Origin: Shigella phage ESh28
Direction: 5' to 3' (one strand)
Length of the DNA: 64,000 nucleotides
Sequence record: ON528738
Of this stretch, positions 8,755 to 52,145 are shown in pieces. How positions within the stretch are numbered: the first letter of the stretch is position 1; every line of letters begins with the position of its first letter. Position numbers and translations under genes: made by a program. The notes below the pieces were generated by a model. That model searched no databases. It was not told the origin of the DNA and was given only the letters and a program-made list of their open reading frames with translations.

Positions 8755-10305
8755 TTAGTAATGAATTTTAATAATATAGTTTAATGATATATTCCATGGT
8801 CTAGTTTCATAACCAATTAATCCTTCACGATTAAGTGTACCATGAGCATCTCTCGGTCCACCTAATTCAAATCCATCATTAGTGAAGTATGAAGCATTAT
8901 CCCAGTCGGAATATTTTCTAGTTCCAAGATATCCTTGATAAACTGACGCGCCAAATGGGCCTTCACTTCTGTTATATTCTCCCCAACCACCGGCGTGTTT
9001 ATGGTATGACATTTGTTGTGCCTGGACACCACCAACATGCATTCCGTCACATCCTACACCAAGTCTATCCTTTCCATAACCATCTTGTCCTCGTTGATTT
9101 AAAATATGACCGCCAGTACCGGCTCCTCTGACGAAAAGACCTCGCATATCAGGAATACCAGGATTGTTCCAATCACCACCAAATCTTGATCCAACTACGT
9201 TTCTATAATCAGGAAATTGGTCACCTGACACGGTTCCACCATGACACATAATCCAACCTGGAGGTGCTGAATCACCTGCAAACATCATAATAGTCCCAAC
9301 TGGAATTCTTTCGGACGCATATCTTTCAGTGGCAACAGGTTGATCGCCATTTTTCCACATTCCGCCGCGCGACCAAATTCCGTTTGCTGTAAGATGGTCT
9401 AAATTTAAAGAACCATTAATAGTTTGTCCACCACGAGTATTAATTACATCTGCGTTCCATGCTAATGCTCCAGAACTATCACCTTCAGGGGCAATACCGG
9501 CTTGCGTCGTTAATTTAACTACTCCGCGCATAGAACCAGTAGCTCCTCGACCATTTAGTGTTTCACCTGTTACTGCAACATCTCCCAAATTACTGTTAAT
9601 TTCCGATTGTGTTCCTAAACGTATAACACCCTTATATTCTTGTGTTGCAACAGAATTCATAAAGGTATACGGGGAAATTGCATATCCTTCGCGGAGAGTT
9701 CCTTGACGAGTTTGCGCAACAGTAGATAATTGAACTACACCTCTCACAGATTCTGATGCAGTATCTTCGGAAGGAGCTATTTGTGAAATTAATTTTATTG
9801 CAAGTTTTTGCGTTTTTAATGGAGTCATTGCCGTAGTATCATCTACTCCAGCTAAAGCTGCAGGTGTAGATGATATTTTAATAACCCCATTTGATGACTC
9901 AGACGAATATCTATTTTGGAACACATCGTCAGTATGGTATTTCAGTTTTTGCGGCGTTATTGATGAATTATTATCTGAGCCTTCTAATGTTTCTTCATTT
10001 GTTGAATAGCGCGTTAAACCATACTTAGTTTCAGTAGCATTTGGATACAATAATCTTGTTGCTAATGTAGCTGGTGTAACGATTTTAGAATTATTAGTTC
10101 CATCTAAAACCTCTTGCTCTGACGCAATCATTGCTATTCCTTTAACTTCCATAGTTGCATCAGGAATACCATTTACGCCGATATTACTTATTTTTGATAA
10201 TGCAGACTGCACTGTCGTGACAGTGTCAGGAAAATTCGATCCAGTAGGATCGAATTTAACATATTTTGATTCATTTGATACGTGCTGATATGTATTGTTA
10301 CTCAT
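8755..10305 (-). CDS. 12: short tail fibre protein gp12
   Basis: 516 aa, Gly/Thr/Ser-rich repeats; position between gp11 and wac (T4 gp12 remembered as 527 aa). Confidence 0.88.
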
Positions 10306-43846: not shown

Positions 43847-44308
43847 ATGATTATTAATGAAAACTCTTGGCACTATAAATTATTCAAATTGTTTAACGAT
43901 GAATGGCAACGACCTAAGACACTATGCGCATACTTTTGGTCTATTGTTATCCCTACATTTTTCGTTTCTATTTTTGGGTGTGCTATACTCGTAGGGTTAA
44001 CAATTATTTGTGCAGAAAGCCTACAACGTTGGCTTATTTTCGGTAGTTTATGGACTTTGCTTCCATCAGCATTTATACTTGCGCTTTTGGTTGTTTTACT
44101 TATTATCGGTTCATTTGTTATTCCTGCACAACTGCGTGAAAAATATAAAGATTATAAATGGAAAAAGGACTATGCTTTACACGTAGAAAATATTGATAGA
44201 GCGTATAAAGGTTTACCTCCTATTCAACCCAAGAAATCGATTATCGTCGAATTTTTAAAAGCTCGTAAAGCTAAAGTATGTCCTGTTATTGAATATAAGG
44301 CTGAATGA
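43847..44308 (+). CDS. membrane protein
   Basis: 153 aa; two long hydrophobic segments (FWSIVIPTFFVSIFGCAILVGLTIICA; LLPSAFILALLVVLLIIGSFVIPA). Confidence 0.6.
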   Translation: MIINENSWHYKLFKLFNDEWQRPKTLCAYFWSIVIPTFFVSIFGCAILVGLTIICAESLQRWLIFGSLWTLLPSAFILALLVVLLIIGSFVIPAQLREKYKDYKWKKDYALHVENIDRAYKGLPPIQPKKSIIVEFLKARKAKVCPVIEYKAE

Positions 44309-45318
44309 TGAAAACAGTAATGAAAAGCTATTTTGGTAGTCATCTTTATGGAACTTCTACCCCAGAATCTGATGTAGATTTTAAAGAAATCTTTGTTCCT
44401 CCTGCTCGCGATATTCTTATTGGAAATGTTAAAGAGCACATGAGTAAAAATACCAACAACACATCATCTAAAAACACTAAAGATGATATTGACCACGAAT
44501 TGTATAGTCTTAAGTATTTCTTTAAATTAGCAGCAGATGGTGAAACTGTAGCATTGGATATGCTTCACACTCCACCTGAACTAGTGGTTAAATCTGATTT
44601 GCCTGATGTGTGGAAGTTTATTCAAGACAACCGTTCTCGTTTTTATACGACTAACATGAAATCCTATTTAGGATATGTCCGCAAGCAAGCTTCTAAATAT
44701 GGTGTCAAGGGTTCTCGTTTGGCTGCATTACGCGATGTATTGAAAGTAGTTAATCAAATCCCTGAGCAATGGGTTGATTACCAAGAAGATGGTTCTATTA
44801 AGCAGCGTCGTACTAAAGTTGAAGATATTAAGCATCGTCTTCCAGAAAACGAATTCTGTGAATGGGTGTTCCATAATCATGAGAAAACAGGCCCACAAAC
44901 GTTCTACACTGTGTTGGGTCGTAAATATCAGACAACGCTTTCTCTTATTGAGCTTAAGCAGTCACTGAACAAATTAGATGCTGAATATGGTGAACGTGCT
45001 CGTAAGGCCGAAGCCAATGAAGGTATTGACTGGAAAGCTCTGAGTCATGCTTGCCGTGGTGGACTCCAACTATTGGAAATTTACAAAACTGGTGACTTGG
45101 TTTATCCACTCAAAGATGCTCCTTTTATTCTCGACGTGAAGTTGGGTAAGCATCCATTTAAAACGGTTCAAGAGTTTTTGGAAGATGTGGTCGATCAAGT
45201 AGAAGCAGCATCTACTGAAGCTTCTAAGAACGGTATGCAACAAAAAGTAGACATGAGTTTCTGGGATGACTTCCTTGAGAAGGTCTATCTTGAAAACCAC
45301 CGAAATTATTATAAATGA
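44305..45318 (+). CDS. nucleotidyltransferase-fold protein (Pol-beta-like GS...DxD motif)
   Basis: 337 aa; N-terminal YFGSHLYGTSTPESDVDF fits the G-S-x9-D-x-D nucleotidyltransferase signature. Confidence 0.55.
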   Translation: MMKTVMKSYFGSHLYGTSTPESDVDFKEIFVPPARDILIGNVKEHMSKNTNNTSSKNTKDDIDHELYSLKYFFKLAADGETVALDMLHTPPELVVKSDLPDVWKFIQDNRSRFYTTNMKSYLGYVRKQASKYGVKGSRLAALRDVLKVVNQIPEQWVDYQEDGSIKQRRTKVEDIKHRLPENEFCEWVFHNHEKTGPQTFYTVLGRKYQTTLSLIELKQSLNKLDAEYGERARKAEANEGIDWKALSHACRGGLQLLEIYKTGDLVYPLKDAPFILDVKLGKHPFKTVQEFLEDVVDQVEAASTEASKNGMQQKVDMSFWDDFLEKVYLENHRNYYK

Positions 45319-45432: not shown

Positions 45433-46401
45433 ATGAAAACTGTAACTATCAATAAGGGTATCTACTTCGGTAAAGAAATCTCTGGAACTTTTGAGCTCTT
45501 AGGCGAATGGTTCCCAGATAATGCTCCGGTAGATGCACAAGGAGATGGTAAAGTTTTTGTTGAAATTGACGGTAAGCGTCGCGGTGTTTGGGTTTACAAA
45601 TCAGACATTTCATATGATGGTGTAAAAGTTGAAGAAGTTAAAGAATCATATGAAGATATGAAAACCCGCATTAATAAAAGATTTAATGTTATGGGAATGA
45701 TGACGAATGGTATTATTAACGGAAACATTCGTTCATTAATTATCTCTGGTGCGGCGGGTATTGGTAAAACGTATTCTTTAGATAAAGCTTTAAATAAAGC
45801 AAATGATATTGGATACATTGAATATAAAAGCATTAACGGTAAAATCTCTGGTATCGGTCTTTATGAACAGCTTTGGAATAATCGTGAAGAGAATTCTGTC
45901 CTTTTGATTGATGATGTGGATGTTTTCTCTGATATGGACATTCTTAATCTTCTAAAAGCTGCTCTGGACACTGGAGAGACCCGTAAAGTCTGCTGGAGCA
46001 CTGCATCTTCTTACTTAGAAGAAAAAGGCATTGAGCGTGAGTTTGAATTTAAAGGAACGATTGTTTTTATCACAAACGTTGACATTGACCGCGAATTAGA
46101 CCGTGGTACTAAACTTGCTCCGCATTTACAAGCATTAGTGTCCCGCTCAGTTTATTTGGATTTGGGTGTTCACACTAATGAAGAAATTATGGTCAGGGTT
46201 GAAGATGTTATTCTTTCAACTGACATGATGCAAAAGCGCGGTCTTTCTGATGAAGAAACTTATAAAGCATTATCATGGATGAAAGTCAATGTTAATCGTT
46301 TACGCAATGTTTCACTGCGTACTGCACTTTATCTTGCTGACTTTATTATGACCGACAAAAATGGTTGGGAAGAAATTGCTGAGGTTACTCTTCTGAAATA
46401 A
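45433..46401 (+). CDS. P-loop ATPase (AAA-like)
   Basis: 322 aa from ATG at 45433 (MKTVTINKG...); Walker A GAAGIGKT, Walker B VLLIDDVD. Confidence 0.7.
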   Translation: MKTVTINKGIYFGKEISGTFELLGEWFPDNAPVDAQGDGKVFVEIDGKRRGVWVYKSDISYDGVKVEEVKESYEDMKTRINKRFNVMGMMTNGIINGNIRSLIISGAAGIGKTYSLDKALNKANDIGYIEYKSINGKISGIGLYEQLWNNREENSVLLIDDVDVFSDMDILNLLKAALDTGETRKVCWSTASSYLEEKGIEREFEFKGTIVFITNVDIDRELDRGTKLAPHLQALVSRSVYLDLGVHTNEEIMVRVEDVILSTDMMQKRGLSDEETYKALSWMKVNVNRLRNVSLRTALYLADFIMTDKNGWEEIAEVTLLK

Positions 46402-46865: not shown

Positions 46866-47393
46866 ATGAATGCTAAAGATATTTTCAACTTGGTAAACTA
46901 CAATGATGGTAAATTTAAATCTGAAGCTCAAAGCAAGTTCTTTAATGATGTCTCAATCGGTGGTGAAATCACGGTTGATGGAGGACAAATTTACAAATCC
47001 CGTTGGAATTGGATCGTTATTATCGATGAGATTGGTATTGTAGAAATTTACAAGAATACGAATAAAAATCGTACATTACACTGGTCTCGTGATACTAACG
47101 AACAGTACAAAAAGGATAAAGCATCTAAATTATCTCGTGTAACTCAAGAAGATATTGAGTTCATCAAGAAAGATATTTTGATGTATGATAACTTAATTGC
47201 TGAAGAGCAAGCTGTTATTGATAAATTTGACGAGATTAAAGCTTCTCGTGAAATTCCTGATTTTATGAAAGAATCAGTAAATGAACGATACACTCTCATT
47301 TCAGAGCGTATTGAAACTTACAAAAAGCAAAGAGCTGAACGCCAAAATACTCTTCGGAAGTTTGAAGAACGGTTAAAGACGGTACTCGCATAA
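46866..47393 (+). CDS. hypothetical protein
   Basis: 175 aa from ATG at 46866 (MNAKDIFNLVNYNDG...), SD GGAGGAA. Confidence 0.6.
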   Translation: MNAKDIFNLVNYNDGKFKSEAQSKFFNDVSIGGEITVDGGQIYKSRWNWIVIIDEIGIVEIYKNTNKNRTLHWSRDTNEQYKKDKASKLSRVTQEDIEFIKKDILMYDNLIAEEQAVIDKFDEIKASREIPDFMKESVNERYTLISERIETYKKQRAERQNTLRKFEERLKTVLA

Positions 47394-47865: not shown

Positions 47866-48753
47866 ATGTCAGTAGTAATTAATAATGTCAATGCAGTAAT
47901 TAAATCTTTAGTTAATAAAAAATTGAATGAATGGACTGTACTTCGTCGTGGAGAGCCAGATAAATTTTTTCATAGATTTAACCCAACTTTGGATTTGAAT
48001 GTTATTGATAAAGATGTTCATGCTGAAATTTTAGATAAATTTAAAGTTGATATTGGGTTTGGATTAGATAAACATTTACAACGAACAAACGGGTCTGGAA
48101 TGGGTTTATCTAATCGCATTATGAAAGCCCTTAATAAAATTGGAGCATTGTCTCGTATTAACGCGAGTGAAATCCTTCGCAATTATAATAAAGGATACGA
48201 CCTTTATGGTCGACTAATGCCGAAATTATCATTTGACCAAATGATAGCGGATTTGTGGGAAAATCAACGACGATTATTAGCATTAGGCGCTCGATTAGCT
48301 AAAGGTCTAGATAAACAAATGATTTTTAAGACCAATAATACAGAAGACCTTAAATGCTTTAAATTTAGTATTCGCGGAGATGATTATTACATCAGAGCTC
48401 GCTCTACAGATTATGTTAATATGGGACATCATCTCTGTTTAGCTTTTGAAGTTTTAAAAGAAGCCGGAACATTAGAATATTCGTCTGGTGCAAAATGCCC
48501 GATTGGTTCAAGTTGTATTTTAATTTATCGCCCGGATGAATCCAGTTCATCTAAATTACCTACAAAACCTGTACCAGTTCGTAGTAACGAAAAACATTCT
48601 GAACAAATTGATTATTTTAATAAGCAAATTGAAGAGCTGAATATTTCTATTCAACAGTATGACGATGAAATTTTCAGACTATCTGGATTGAGTAGTAAAG
48701 CTAAATCTGAGCGTGAAAAGTTAATTAAAATTGTTGATTTACTTAAATCTTAA
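47866..48753 (+). CDS. hypothetical protein with C-terminal coiled-coil tail (array member 1)
   Basis: 295 aa from ATG at 47866; C-terminus NKQIEELNISIQQYDDEIFRLSGLSSKAKSEREKLIKIVDLLKS. Confidence 0.6.
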   Translation: MSVVINNVNAVIKSLVNKKLNEWTVLRRGEPDKFFHRFNPTLDLNVIDKDVHAEILDKFKVDIGFGLDKHLQRTNGSGMGLSNRIMKALNKIGALSRINASEILRNYNKGYDLYGRLMPKLSFDQMIADLWENQRRLLALGARLAKGLDKQMIFKTNNTEDLKCFKFSIRGDDYYIRARSTDYVNMGHHLCLAFEVLKEAGTLEYSSGAKCPIGSSCILIYRPDESSSSKLPTKPVPVRSNEKHSEQIDYFNKQIEELNISIQQYDDEIFRLSGLSSKAKSEREKLIKIVDLLKS

Positions 48754-48761
48754 GGAACACT

Positions 48762-49790
48762 ATGAAAACTCGTTCTCAAATTGAAGATATAGTTCGTAAT
48801 GCCAGCTATACTCGTGATGTTATGACATTTTTGTGCCAAAATAATTTAGACCCTGATAAAGTTAATCGTGATATTCATCACTTTAAGTATACGAATAGCA
48901 GTGAATGGGTGCGTAATTTTAGTAAAGCAGGGTATATTACGCAAATGACTGCTCGTGAACAGCTCACCGATTTCTGTAAAACTATTGATTATAAAAATCC
49001 TTTATTTGTTCAAGGCGTTGGTCAGAGTAAGGTTGATTTATCAACAGGATTTTTTAATCCAAATCATTATCGTCTTGAATGGAGATTTATTGCTCTATTC
49101 CGTAAACAATTAAAGCAAATTTTGTCTACAGCTAGTCGATTAAAAGGTTCTAATATTAACTTAAAGAATCTGAAATTTGATGGTTATACTCTTCAAATGG
49201 AAGTAAGACCATCTAAAGAAAATAATAGAACTGCACGAATTAGCTTTAAACCTAATACAAAAAATTCTCTTTCAATTTGTGAATGTCTTAAATCACAGTT
49301 GACAGAAGCATTTAAGTATATGGATGTTGTTGCTGCTGTTCAATCTAAGATTTTACCTCGTTTTGAACGATTTAAGTTAGATACAACATCATATGAACTT
49401 GATATGATCGTTTCATTTAAATACGATTTTTTGAGAAAGGACGAAGTCCCGCAAGAGAAAAAGCAGGAAGTGCAAGATAACTTAAATTTAAATTTATCCA
49501 ATTACTTATCAAACGATCCTAAATTTTGGATGTATAGCTCAAGCAATATAGATGCATGTAAACTTAATAAAGTGAGTTTTCTTCCTACTGAAAATTCAAA
49601 TTTTAAACCTGTAGAAAAATGGCACGCTGACGCGATTGAGAAGTCTCTTAAGGCAGTAGATGATGAACTCGTTAAAGCGACCAATGAAGTGCTAGAAGCT
49701 GAAAAGGTGTTAGAACAAGCTCAGTCAAGGGTTCAAAATCTGACAAAGCAACGTTCTAAACTGAACAATGCACTAAATGCACTGAACTAG
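48762..49790 (+). CDS. hypothetical protein with C-terminal coiled-coil tail (array member 2)
   Basis: 342 aa; N-terminus MKTRSQIEDIV; C-terminus ...LEAEKVLEQAQSRVQNLTKQRSKLNNALNALN. Confidence 0.65.
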   Translation: MKTRSQIEDIVRNASYTRDVMTFLCQNNLDPDKVNRDIHHFKYTNSSEWVRNFSKAGYITQMTAREQLTDFCKTIDYKNPLFVQGVGQSKVDLSTGFFNPNHYRLEWRFIALFRKQLKQILSTASRLKGSNINLKNLKFDGYTLQMEVRPSKENNRTARISFKPNTKNSLSICECLKSQLTEAFKYMDVVAAVQSKILPRFERFKLDTTSYELDMIVSFKYDFLRKDEVPQEKKQEVQDNLNLNLSNYLSNDPKFWMYSSSNIDACKLNKVSFLPTENSNFKPVEKWHADAIEKSLKAVDDELVKATNEVLEAEKVLEQAQSRVQNLTKQRSKLNNALNALN

Positions 49791-49821
49791 TTTACTTTGC
49801 CACAAGGATGTGGTATAATGT
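49788..49821 (+). promoter_or_regulatory. sigma70-type early promoter
   Basis: -35 GTTTAC and extended -10 TGgTATAAT. Confidence 0.55.
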
Positions 49822-49847
49822 TCTTACTTTCTACTGAGGAGATTAAT

Positions 49848-50849
49848 ATGACTCGTAACGAATATATCAAATCATTCAATAGCGTTATTGATGATAAAGC
49901 TATACCGATGTTTGGTCAAAATATCGTTCTTTCTATTATCAATCAATGGCTCAATAGTGTTGATGCAAGTATTGTTTCTTCTACTAAATTTATTCATGAA
50001 ATTCGTAAAATTTCTAGCCGTGTAGATAAAGATCTTATCAAGAAAACCTTTAAAGAGTCTCGTCTTCTTTCATATTTGGTTAATCGGGATATTCTTGGTA
50101 ATTTTGGGAAAGAAATTAAACGAACCAAAGATGTAGTAGGATATAATTGGTTCGGTGATGTTAATTCTTATCATCTTAATAATAAAGAAGACCCTGAGAA
50201 TATTTTTACTCGTCGTTGGATTAGTAATTTCAGACTTTTCAAAGGACAGATTCTAAAATCAGCTTCTAAATTATGTTATGGCGATTATCGTCAAATTCAT
50301 CCTTTGGCTTCTGATATGATTATCGTAAAAGAATATGAGCTTGATGAAAATAAAGTAGCTATTTTTGTGAATTATGGATTTTTTACACCAGAAACTAACC
50401 AAAAGAACATCAATAAATTTTTCTCAATTGCTAGCACTATAACTCGTCAATTAGAGACCGCATTACTTTGTATGGAAACAGTAGAAAATATTCATACATA
50501 TCCTTTTAAGAATATATGCGGTTGGGAAGGATATAAAATTGTAGTTAGTCTTCGTGAAGTGAAATGTACTTATTCACCTACTAGTAAAGAAATTTACCAA
50601 CAAAAATGTGATGAAATTGTGAATACTCCTAAAGAAGAAACTACCCTTGAGGAACTAATGGAATGTCTTGACGATTCACCTGAACCGATAGAAATTCGTC
50701 CAGAAGTTATTGCACTAGAAAAAGCTTATAAAGAAGCTCTAGAAATTTCTAATAAAGCACAGAAAGAATATGAGAAGGCTAAAAGGATTTGGGAAGAATC
50801 TGTTAATCGCCTGGATCGTCTTGAACAAGCTTTACAGTTAATTAAGTAA
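49848..50849 (+). CDS. hypothetical protein with C-terminal coiled-coil tail (array member 3)
   Basis: 333 aa from ATG at 49848 (MTRNEYIKSF...), SD GAGGAG; C-terminus ...EYEKAKRIWEESVNRLDRLEQALQLIK. Confidence 0.6.
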   Translation: MTRNEYIKSFNSVIDDKAIPMFGQNIVLSIINQWLNSVDASIVSSTKFIHEIRKISSRVDKDLIKKTFKESRLLSYLVNRDILGNFGKEIKRTKDVVGYNWFGDVNSYHLNNKEDPENIFTRRWISNFRLFKGQILKSASKLCYGDYRQIHPLASDMIIVKEYELDENKVAIFVNYGFFTPETNQKNINKFFSIASTITRQLETALLCMETVENIHTYPFKNICGWEGYKIVVSLREVKCTYSPTSKEIYQQKCDEIVNTPKEETTLEELMECLDDSPEPIEIRPEVIALEKAYKEALEISNKAQKEYEKAKRIWEESVNRLDRLEQALQLIK

Positions 50850-50901
50850 TTTAAAGCCAAGGATGGCTCGGAGTATAAACCATTAACCAAGTGAGAAGAA
50901 T

Positions 50902-51831
50902 ATGAAAACTCGTAAACATTATATTGATTATTTTGACAGTCTTATTACTAAACACCGTAATTATCAGATCGGGCACAGAGCAGTAATCAATAATATTCTT
51001 CGTGATTTCCTTCAATATGTTGGCCAGGAAAATCATATCTGTAAAGATACTCAAAACGCTTATTCTCATTCGTTAGGCAATTTGCTTCAATGGTTTAAAC
51101 GTTCTCGTCTGTTATCTTCTACTGTAGCTAGTGATAACATTAAAAACTTTATGAAGCCGAGCTTCATTAAATCTGAGACATCTATAACCGATTTGGTTGA
51201 ATTTACTATTGTTAACGATGTTAAAAAGACCCATTTGGCTGATTGGTTATCTACCATTCCCGAAACTAAATTTGCTGATAAATTCGCTTGTCAATTCAAT
51301 GACCAAGTGAATATGCTTTTTAAGCATGCTCGTAAACTATTTACCGCGGGCGATGACCGTACAAATACAGTTCATGTTAAGGATTGGGTTATTGCTGATG
51401 AAGTAACACACAAGCCAGGTGGTTCATCAGTATTAATTAATATCCAGGTTCCTTATTATTACTCACGTAATCTCGGCACCATGACAGCTAGAGAAATTAA
51501 TAAGCACAACAAAACTATTCGTTCGTTGTCTTATAAACTCTGCACGATGGTGGAGATGATGGACGTAGTGGAAATGTATGATGAAACCGAAGATAATGGT
51601 TCAATGTTATACAGTTCACGCATTCTAATTAAACTGAAGAACCCTAATACATATAAGACAGTTGTAAAAGAGCCTAAAGTAGAAAAGGTTGATAATCTGA
51701 GTGAAGAACGTGAATATCTCAATGCCCGTTTGACTGAAGTTGAAAAACAAATTGCAGAACACACCAAATTGTTAAAATCTCTTAATGCAAAAGCAAATGG
51801 TTTACGTAATGCTATTGAGGTATTGAAATGA
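50902..51831 (+). CDS. hypothetical protein with C-terminal coiled-coil tail (array member 4)
   Basis: 309 aa; N-terminus MKTRKHYIDYF; C-terminus ...[42 protein letters not shown]. Confidence 0.65.
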   Translation: MKTRKHYIDYFDSLITKHRNYQIGHRAVINNILRDFLQYVGQENHICKDTQNAYSHSLGNLLQWFKRSRLLSSTVASDNIKNFMKPSFIKSETSITDLVEFTIVNDVKKTHLADWLSTIPETKFADKFACQFNDQVNMLFKHARKLFTAGDDRTNTVHVKDWVIADEVTHKPGGSSVLINIQVPYYYSRNLGTMTAREINKHNKTIRSLSYKLCTMVEMMDVVEMYDETEDNGSMLYSSRILIKLKNPNTYKTVVKEPKVEKVDNLSEEREYLNARLTEVEKQIAEHTKLLKSLNAKANGLRNAIEVLK

Positions 51832-52145
51832 AAAAGCGTCTATTAGAAGACATTGCAGCTTCAAGTAATTCCAGTTTAATTAAAATTATTATGGCCGGTG
51901 AAGAAGACGATATGGAAATGCGTGGAAAGATTCACGGCTGCGACGATCTAGACTTTAAACCTCCTGCTTGGGATGCTATTATGGCTATGGTTGAACGTCG
52001 CGAAAGGGCTTCTAAAAACGTTCCTAATTGTCCTGAATGCGGTACTGAACAGGTTCAATTGGTCCATTGGCAGACTAGTAATCTTCGTTATAAATGCCGT
52101 CATTGCAAACACCGATTTAACCGAGAAGAAAATGACAAAGCGTAA
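51828..52145 (+). CDS. zinc-ribbon protein
   Basis: 105 aa; CPECGTEQ...KCRHCKH (CxxC-x19-CxxC). Confidence 0.6.

Follow-up and report, generated by a model that had tools for sequence, protein, structure and literature searches.

The nrdC.6 to nrdC.3 locus of phage ESh28

The closest described gene is nrdC.5 of phage T4. A T4 mutant without nrdC.5 does not plate on ECOR17, nor on MG1655 carrying the ECOR17 dsr1 gene, and plating is restored by plasmid-borne nrdC.5, which the authors call an early gene (Srikant, Guegler and Laub 2022; PMC9391042). Through its sensor, the SIR2 NADase Dsr1 recognises the major capsid protein of the phage (PMC13581612). The neighbouring gene nrdC.1 inhibits Septu (preprint 10.1101/2025.11.20.689424), so that, together with the anti-Dsr1 activity of nrdC.5, the locus behaves as a counter-defence island. 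The literature searched gives no mechanism for NrdC.5, and nothing on nrdC.3, nrdC.4 and nrdC.6 beyond a genome announcement; the T4 record labels nrdC.6, nrdC.5, nrdC.4 and nrdC.3 all as "hypothetical".

The corresponding locus was analysed in Shigella phage ESh28, within a window of 64,000 nucleotides (the whole stretch of DNA studied, from sequence record ON528738; all window positions count from its first letter). Four consecutive open reading frames (ORFs) of the plus strand, here called A, B, C and D, lie at 47866-51831. An earlier note on the letters of this DNA had given exactly these coordinates, with lengths of 295-342 residues, and had placed the block between an ATPase gene and nrdC; both flanks agree, the upstream one being the AAA-type nrdC.10 orthologue. 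In the best reading, a single ancestral early accessory gene of the T4-like phages (Straboviridae) has multiplied in tandem within a lineage, giving four genes with a shared architecture and a counter-defence role; we consider this on the whole probable. The four genes are as follows.

47866..48753, plus strand: gene A, 295 residues; orthologue of T4 nrdC.6; phrog_2257; homologues carry Pfam PF26899 (Phage_T4_Y05B)
48762..49790, plus strand: gene B, 342 residues; orthologue of T4 nrdC.5; Pfam DUF7235 (PF23882)
49848..50849, plus strand: gene C, 333 residues; orthologue of T4 nrdC.4; phrog_1435; homologues carry PF26897
50902..51831, plus strand: gene D, 309 residues; orthologue of T4 nrdC.3 in a different allele (60% identity to T4); phrog_1435, as C

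Gene B is the counterpart of the characterised T4 gene: it shares 93% identity with T4 NrdC.5 (NP_049703) along the whole protein, lies at the syntenic position, and matches the Pfam model DUF7235 (domain of unknown function, DUF) over profile positions 1-307 of 307 (E 1.8e-117, 392.6 bits for a cut-off of 30). A, C and D have no match to this model. Full-length profile matches place A in phrog_2257 (E 1.3e-152) and both C and D in phrog_1435 (E 1.1e-167 and 6.8e-114); PF26897 is assigned through homologues of C, not by a direct scan. As the earlier note observed, two of the four proteins, B and D, start with MKTR. The N-terminus of C, MTRNEY, is the same motif, the start of C being taken as the ATG at 49848, which is preceded by a GAGGAG ribosome-binding site.

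Relatedness of the four proteins

By eye, the bodies of the four proteins had been judged dissimilar. This holds for pairwise comparison, where BLASTP is significant only for C and D (E 5e-7, 25% identity over 226 residues), but by profile methods the bodies are homologous. Pairwise BLASTP is too insensitive to decide relatedness here. In the alignment, A, C and D are 13-18% identical to B. In agreement with the BLASTP result, PHROGs unites C and D in one family (phrog_1435) and keeps A and B in two others, and Pfam has three separate DUF-type families.

A first profile-profile comparison (hhalign) of narrowly defined families gave a strong match for C-D and a moderate one for B-C; those for A-B, A-C and B-D were weak, yet fell collinearly on the same motifs. 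The comparison became convincing only once distant members, found by a representative search, had been added, each to its best-scoring family. With these expanded families, the hhalign probability is 98% for C-D (E 3e-14), 94.5% for A-B (E 7e-8), 93% for B against C and D combined (E 3e-7) and 87% for B-D, over 237 columns that include the tail. Direct A-C (28%) and A-D (36%) matches are weak, and A is therefore tied into the family through B. When all families are aligned with MAFFT, the four proteins coincide in two helix-pair motifs, in a third helix and at the C-terminal end.

Sequences that bridge the families have also been found. P0233, of the Klebsiella Marfavirus type, matches the hidden Markov models (HMMs) of B (4e-10), C (1e-10) and D (7e-4), and P0235, P0240 and P0247 match both A (1e-16 to 1e-8) and B (7e-7 to 2e-4); the one contig found to encode P0235 is 1.9 kb long. 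A profile of the combined alignment, run against 1.84 billion representative proteins, retrieved only 29 at E up to 0.001, none of which is a generic coiled-coil protein. Within the 64-kb window, the superfamily HMM matches exactly A, B, C and D. The profile comparisons and bridging sequences indicate that the four genes are paralogues of one small superfamily, sharing a common ancestor.

Four unrelated proteins that share a generic coiled-coil end by compositional coincidence would also produce a single significant BLASTP pair, three separate families in Pfam and PHROGs, and tail-only HMMs that mostly score no better than pattern-preserving shuffles; yet such coincidence, which we hold to be very improbable, is contradicted by the 87-98% probabilities along the chain A-B-(C,D) with collinear body regions, by the bridging sequences, by the same predicted order of elements in A and B, and by the 29 profile matches. 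A family had been suspected in the earlier note, and similarity beyond generic coiled-coil composition is indeed found in the hhalign chain and the bridges. The form it had imagined, different bodies sharing one C-terminal module, gives way to full-length paralogues whose tails alone carry little cross-family sequence signal. To our knowledge, the four genes have not been described before as one family with a common architecture and a copy-number series, while the genes themselves have long been listed as T4 ORFs, one of them with a published function.

Architecture and core fold

AlphaFold models were obtained for A and B, with a pLDDT (predicted local distance difference test) of 84 and 74, respectively. 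In both, the elements follow the same order: N-terminal helices, the helix pair of motif 1 (FK.S..LS...A..IL.NF.K), the helix pair of motif 2 (F..Q...L..A.(R/K)L..G.D(R/K)), two strands, a helix and two further strands, a linker, and a long terminal helix. The beta-beta-alpha-beta-beta core reaches a pLDDT of ~90 in the B model, and the linker is of low confidence in both (residues 232-278 of B and 227-239 of A). Secondary structure is the same at 76% of the aligned positions, compared with 42 +/- 5% (maximum 57%) in circularly shifted controls, an agreement not fully independent because both models were made from one mixed alignment.

The profile comparisons, the bridging sequences and these two models together indicate one small superfamily, with one architecture in all four proteins: an N-terminal helical region, a compact core, a disordered and variable linker, and a C-terminal helix ending in L-x-x-A/I-L/I-x-x-L-K. 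In a Foldseek search against predicted viral structures, the only matches (E 7e-7 to 2e-4) were uncharacterised proteins of ~220-370 residues from T4-like phages, namely Enterobacter IME523, Erwinia Cronus, Klebsiella Mineola, Pectobacterium PM2, Citrobacter Merlin and Aeromonas 65.2. These extend the family and give no function.

The core of the B model resembles a tail-terminator-like (gpU-like) fold, an unconfirmed lead that is not reproduced with the A model. On its strength, the alpha/beta core might derive from a phage tail-terminator or tail-completion protein, and the family might act as soluble decoys for host sensors of conserved virion proteins, which seems to us quite unlikely. The four proteins show no sequence similarity to the terminator and completion proteins (lambda gpU, SPP1 gp17-like, DUF3168), and differ from them in lying in an early accessory region and in having additional helices at the N-terminus as well as a linker and a coiled-coil tail. 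A fuller version, which is given still less weight, is that an exapted virion fold was duplicated into oligomeric decoys, each jamming a different host sensor of phage structural proteins (of the Dsr1/Avs type), the tail presenting several copies as in an assembled virion ring.

C-terminal tails

Each of the four proteins ends in a heptad-rich segment.

48583..48750, plus strand: A tail, residues 240-295; heptad-periodic helix ending KLIKIVDLLKS
49611..49787, plus strand: B tail, residues 284-342; heptad-periodic helix ending KLNNALNALN
50697..50846, plus strand: C tail, residues 284-333; amphipathic, heptad-periodic segment ending RLEQALQLIK
51703..51828, plus strand: D tail, residues 268-309; heptad-periodic segment at the C-terminus

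The hydrophobic period of these tails, that of B being taken from residue 285, peaks at 3.46-3.47 residues in all four proteins, and the power at 3.5 is reached by only 8 (A), 0 (B), 2 (C) and 1 (D) of 2000 composition shuffles. A cruder heptad score over 28 residues puts A, B and D at ranks 1, 2 and 4 of the 52 plus-strand ORFs in the window and shows the C tail as less regular. In the AlphaFold models, A and B end in uninterrupted single helices of 55 residues (240-294) and 58 residues (284-341), with a pLDDT of ~90-96. When compared with all PDB sequences, the family profile finds matches through the tail only, and to known coiled coils only (Smc, the ATPase inhibitor IF1, GCN4 chimeras and designed trimers). 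The heptad-rich ends reported in the earlier note are therefore real, as periodicity, helix models and PDB matches show, but they measure 42-58 rather than 30-40 residues.

A terminal motif, L..[AIV][LIVM]..[LIMF][KN] with at most one further residue, closes all four proteins and none of the 126 other window ORFs of at least 60 residues, a count that is descriptive only, the motif having been derived post hoc from the four proteins themselves. Distant family members also fit it. Apart from these last ~10 residues, the tails of the paralogues have a pattern, a length and a position in common, not a sequence. Tail-only HMMs of one family scored the tails of another, mostly, no better than hydrophobic-pattern-preserving shuffles: the score of A to B was reached by 2/1000, that of A to D by 32/1000 and that of C to B by 38/1000, the remaining comparisons being non-significant. 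For this reason, no transferable, sequence-conserved tail module is claimed.

Of the regions compared, the tail varies least in every orthologue group (0.009-0.036), against 0.03-0.08 for the body and 0.065-0.148 for the linker. In A and B, the linker is the most variable part (0.11-0.15), but in C (0.065) its variability does not exceed that of the body. The tail is thus under functional constraint and specific to each paralogue, which would fit the formation of homotypic coiled coils better than a common docking partner.

Alternatively, the tails might bring the four paralogues together in a hetero-oligomeric complex that works as one machine, in place of four independent inhibitors. Such a complex could be expected from adjacent, co-oriented genes whose tails all carry the same terminal motif and are the best conserved part of each gene. 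We nevertheless judge it unlikely: related phages have one or three copies with the tail intact, individual members are missing from natural genomes, T4 NrdC.5 alone complemented the Dsr1 phenotype of the deletion mutant (PMC9391042), and the tail sequence is distinct in each family, a better fit to homotypic pairing.

Two further proteins with tail-like ends were noted. The metagenomic protein P0245 (173 residues) consists of 85 N-terminal residues without a match to the family profile, followed by an NrdC.5 tail that is near-identical over the last ~50 residues; it may be another deletion or fusion product. The nrdC.8 orthologue (window 46866-47393, 175 residues) also has a charged, helix-like end, with a heptad score of 0.758 that 5/200 shuffles reach. 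As a candidate family member it was rejected, having no match to the superfamily HMM at E up to 1.

Distribution and copy number

All tblastn matches to the four proteins, in a search of 50,697 phage records, are in T4-like phages of Enterobacterales. Presence of the individual members in related phages, which the earlier note had proposed to follow, is unequal: A is found 741 times, D 653, C 553 and B 531, and the copy number ranges from one to four. In two more distant T4-like phages, Marfavirus F48 and Kanagawavirus CIP9, the superfamily HMM identifies a single copy, which occupies the syntenic position between nrdC and the nucleotidyltransferase gene nrdC.11. Three copies are present in Dhakavirus Bp7 (A, B and C types), in an RB69-like viral contig (A, B and D types) and in Gaprivervirus SP18 (L015, 5956-6860), where the B-type copy is split into ORFs of 170 and 106 residues. 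Tequatrovirus has four.

Copies are also broken or lost in individual genomes. In one viral genome (L003, 5916-6948), C is split into ORFs of 193 and 158 residues; this copy and the split B-type copy of SP18 look like frameshifted genes. Phage ACG-C40 (L010, 5805-6216) carries a natural deletion of ~2.9 kb that fuses codon 71 of nrdC.5 to codon 238 of nrdC.3; C is gone altogether, as are the greater parts of B and D. It was considered as a case of a tail retained on a different body, and the junction is that of a plain deletion. Protein P0056, from a 167-kb contig, is likewise a deletion chimera, of B(146-270) and D(135-end), and not a module swap.

The T4 reference itself (L001, NC_000866, ~10116-10137; window ~48640) has a 1-bp deletion in the tail of nrdC.6, where GCTGAATATT is changed to GCTGA-TATT. 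T4 NrdC.6 is thus annotated with 275 residues and without the coiled-coil end, and the DNA downstream is still 98% identical. This could be a real frameshift of the laboratory strain or an old sequencing error.

Variation and selection

Where Tequatrovirus genomes agree at 99-100% in the flanking genes, identity is 88-96% for B, 90-97% for C and 60-98% for D. D falls into three allele classes, at ~95%, 76% and 60% identity, in genomes that are otherwise 96-100% identical. The T4-type allele has a synonymous divergence (dS) of ~1, which points to allele replacement by recombination.

The ratio of nonsynonymous to synonymous divergence (dN/dS) is 0.16-0.33 for B, C and D and 0.04-0.16 for A, compared with 0-0.12 for most neighbours, the exceptions being nrdC.7 (up to 0.20) and nrdC.2 (0.11-0.29). 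B, C and D are under relaxed constraint, without gene-wide positive selection. The family had been described as diversifying, which is correct in a relative sense, given the higher dN/dS of B, C and D and the three D alleles, but not in the sense of a gene-wide dN/dS above 1. The dN/dS values of B, C and D, the allele classes of D, the natural deletions and frameshifts and the unequal presence of the members make up an arms-race-like signature.

Gene neighbourhood and annotation

The locus is collinear with T4 from nrdC.11 through nrdD, in reversed orientation relative to the T4 map, with the order nrdC.11, nrdC.10, nrdC.9, nrdC.8, nrdC.7, A, B, C, D, nrdC.2, nrdC.1, nrdC, gene 49, nrdD. The four genes sit between nrdC.7 and nrdC.2, in an accessory region flanked upstream by the nrdC.10 and nrdC.11 orthologues and downstream by nrdC, gene 49 and nrdD, and not in the late structural (neck/tail) module. 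The surrounding 5 kb is 96-97% identical to many Tequatrovirus genomes (707 phage records match).

Upstream, the nrdC.11 orthologue (window 44305-45318) matches the Pfam family RlaP, an RNA-repair-pathway nucleotidyltransferase (E 1.9e-11), and the nrdC.10 orthologue (window 45433-46401) has weak matches to AAA/STAND-type NTPases, all under the curated cut-offs. Most T4-like genera examined keep these two genes beside the family; no nrdC.10 is annotated in SP18 and F48. Downstream, the nrdC.2 orthologue (window 51828-52145) encodes a zinc-ribbon protein of 105 residues, its start codon overlapping the stop of D. Its variability equals that of D among close relatives (64-98% identity, dN/dS 0.11-0.29), and it may be another fast-evolving accessory gene.

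In many phage records, the orthologues of nrdC.3 to nrdC.7 are called "thioredoxin", a label that seems to have spread from the map-position names and that, for the four genes, is unsupported by any family or fold match. Together with the nearby nrdC, nrdD, nrdG and nrdH, these GenBank records could suggest that the four genes serve nucleotide or redox metabolism of the phage. Against this, no thioredoxin, glutaredoxin or other enzyme family was found at E up to 1 (Pfam) or 0.1 (NCBIfam), the A and B models do not show a thioredoxin fold, and the nrdC.x names just record T4 map position. A metabolic role is scarcely credible, being effectively refuted by the family scans. Scans with PADLOC and NCBIfam gave nothing meaningful.

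A role in counter-defence

As T4 NrdC.5 disables Dsr1, its paralogues A, C and D are candidate counter-defence genes. We propose that each protein would be made early in infection and would bind and neutralise one host anti-phage protein, the target of the nrdC.5 copy being the SIR2 NADase Dsr1. The tail would drive self-association into a coiled-coil oligomer and so provide multivalent binding. The body and linker would carry the target specificity, diverging between copies and between phages.

Early expression in ESh28 is presumed. A promoter-like element lies in the spacer between B and C.

49791..49819, plus strand: promoter-like element of the B-C spacer; TTTACT, 17 nucleotides, TATAAT with an upstream TG; followed by GAGGAG and the ATG at 49848

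A short hairpin at 49798-49815 overlaps this element. The C-D spacer has a weaker TTTAAA/TATAAA pair, and the A-B spacer is just 8 bp.

Several observations weigh against the proposal of an expanded counter-defence family. Among the four genes, only nrdC.5 has an experimental function, in T4. No gene has a gene-wide dN/dS above 1, and A is under purifying selection much as its neighbours are. The total of promoter-like matches in the region equals the shuffle expectation, the B-C element being a consensus match only. Oligomerisation of the tails is presumed from heptad periodicity, and the tail-only HMMs, which across families mostly do no better than shuffles, do not indicate a shared interaction partner of the tails; the tail of A is even lost in the T4 reference without known consequence. 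Finally, the two structure models are those of A and B, and share the one mixed alignment.

The homology by itself would allow the three DUF-type families to be united. If the proposal is true, A, C and D would be three candidate inhibitors of as yet unmatched E. coli defence systems within a 4-kb block, carried by phages that belong to the best-studied family and by phages with a use in therapy. Counter-defence genes would then multiply in tandem while their scaffold stays fixed and their oligomerising tail is conserved. The three would be additions to the phage counter-defence proteins, not a new kind of system.

Comparison with known systems

The closest known protein is T4 NrdC.5 itself. 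B is its orthologue by sequence (93% identical), by position and by a Pfam match over the full length. Its paralogues A, C and D repeat the architecture at just 13-18% identity to B, and anti-Dsr1 activity is known for the T4 protein alone. A parallel is found in phage SPbeta, whose protein DSAD1 likewise neutralises a defence-associated sirtuin, the SIR2 defence protein DSR2, by binding it.

At the level of the locus, the block resembles the anti-toxin locus dmd-tifA-adfA of T4 and the anti-Septu gene nrdC.1, which are likewise early, non-essential and variable genes clustered in accessory regions. As in those T4 counter-defence islands, genes are lost or amplified by recombination, and each would be tuned to one host defence. 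Whereas the dmd-tifA-adfA and nrdC.1 genes are small and mutually unrelated, the locus of ESh28 contains a multi-part protein of ~300 residues, tandem-duplicated three times with its coiled-coil end kept.

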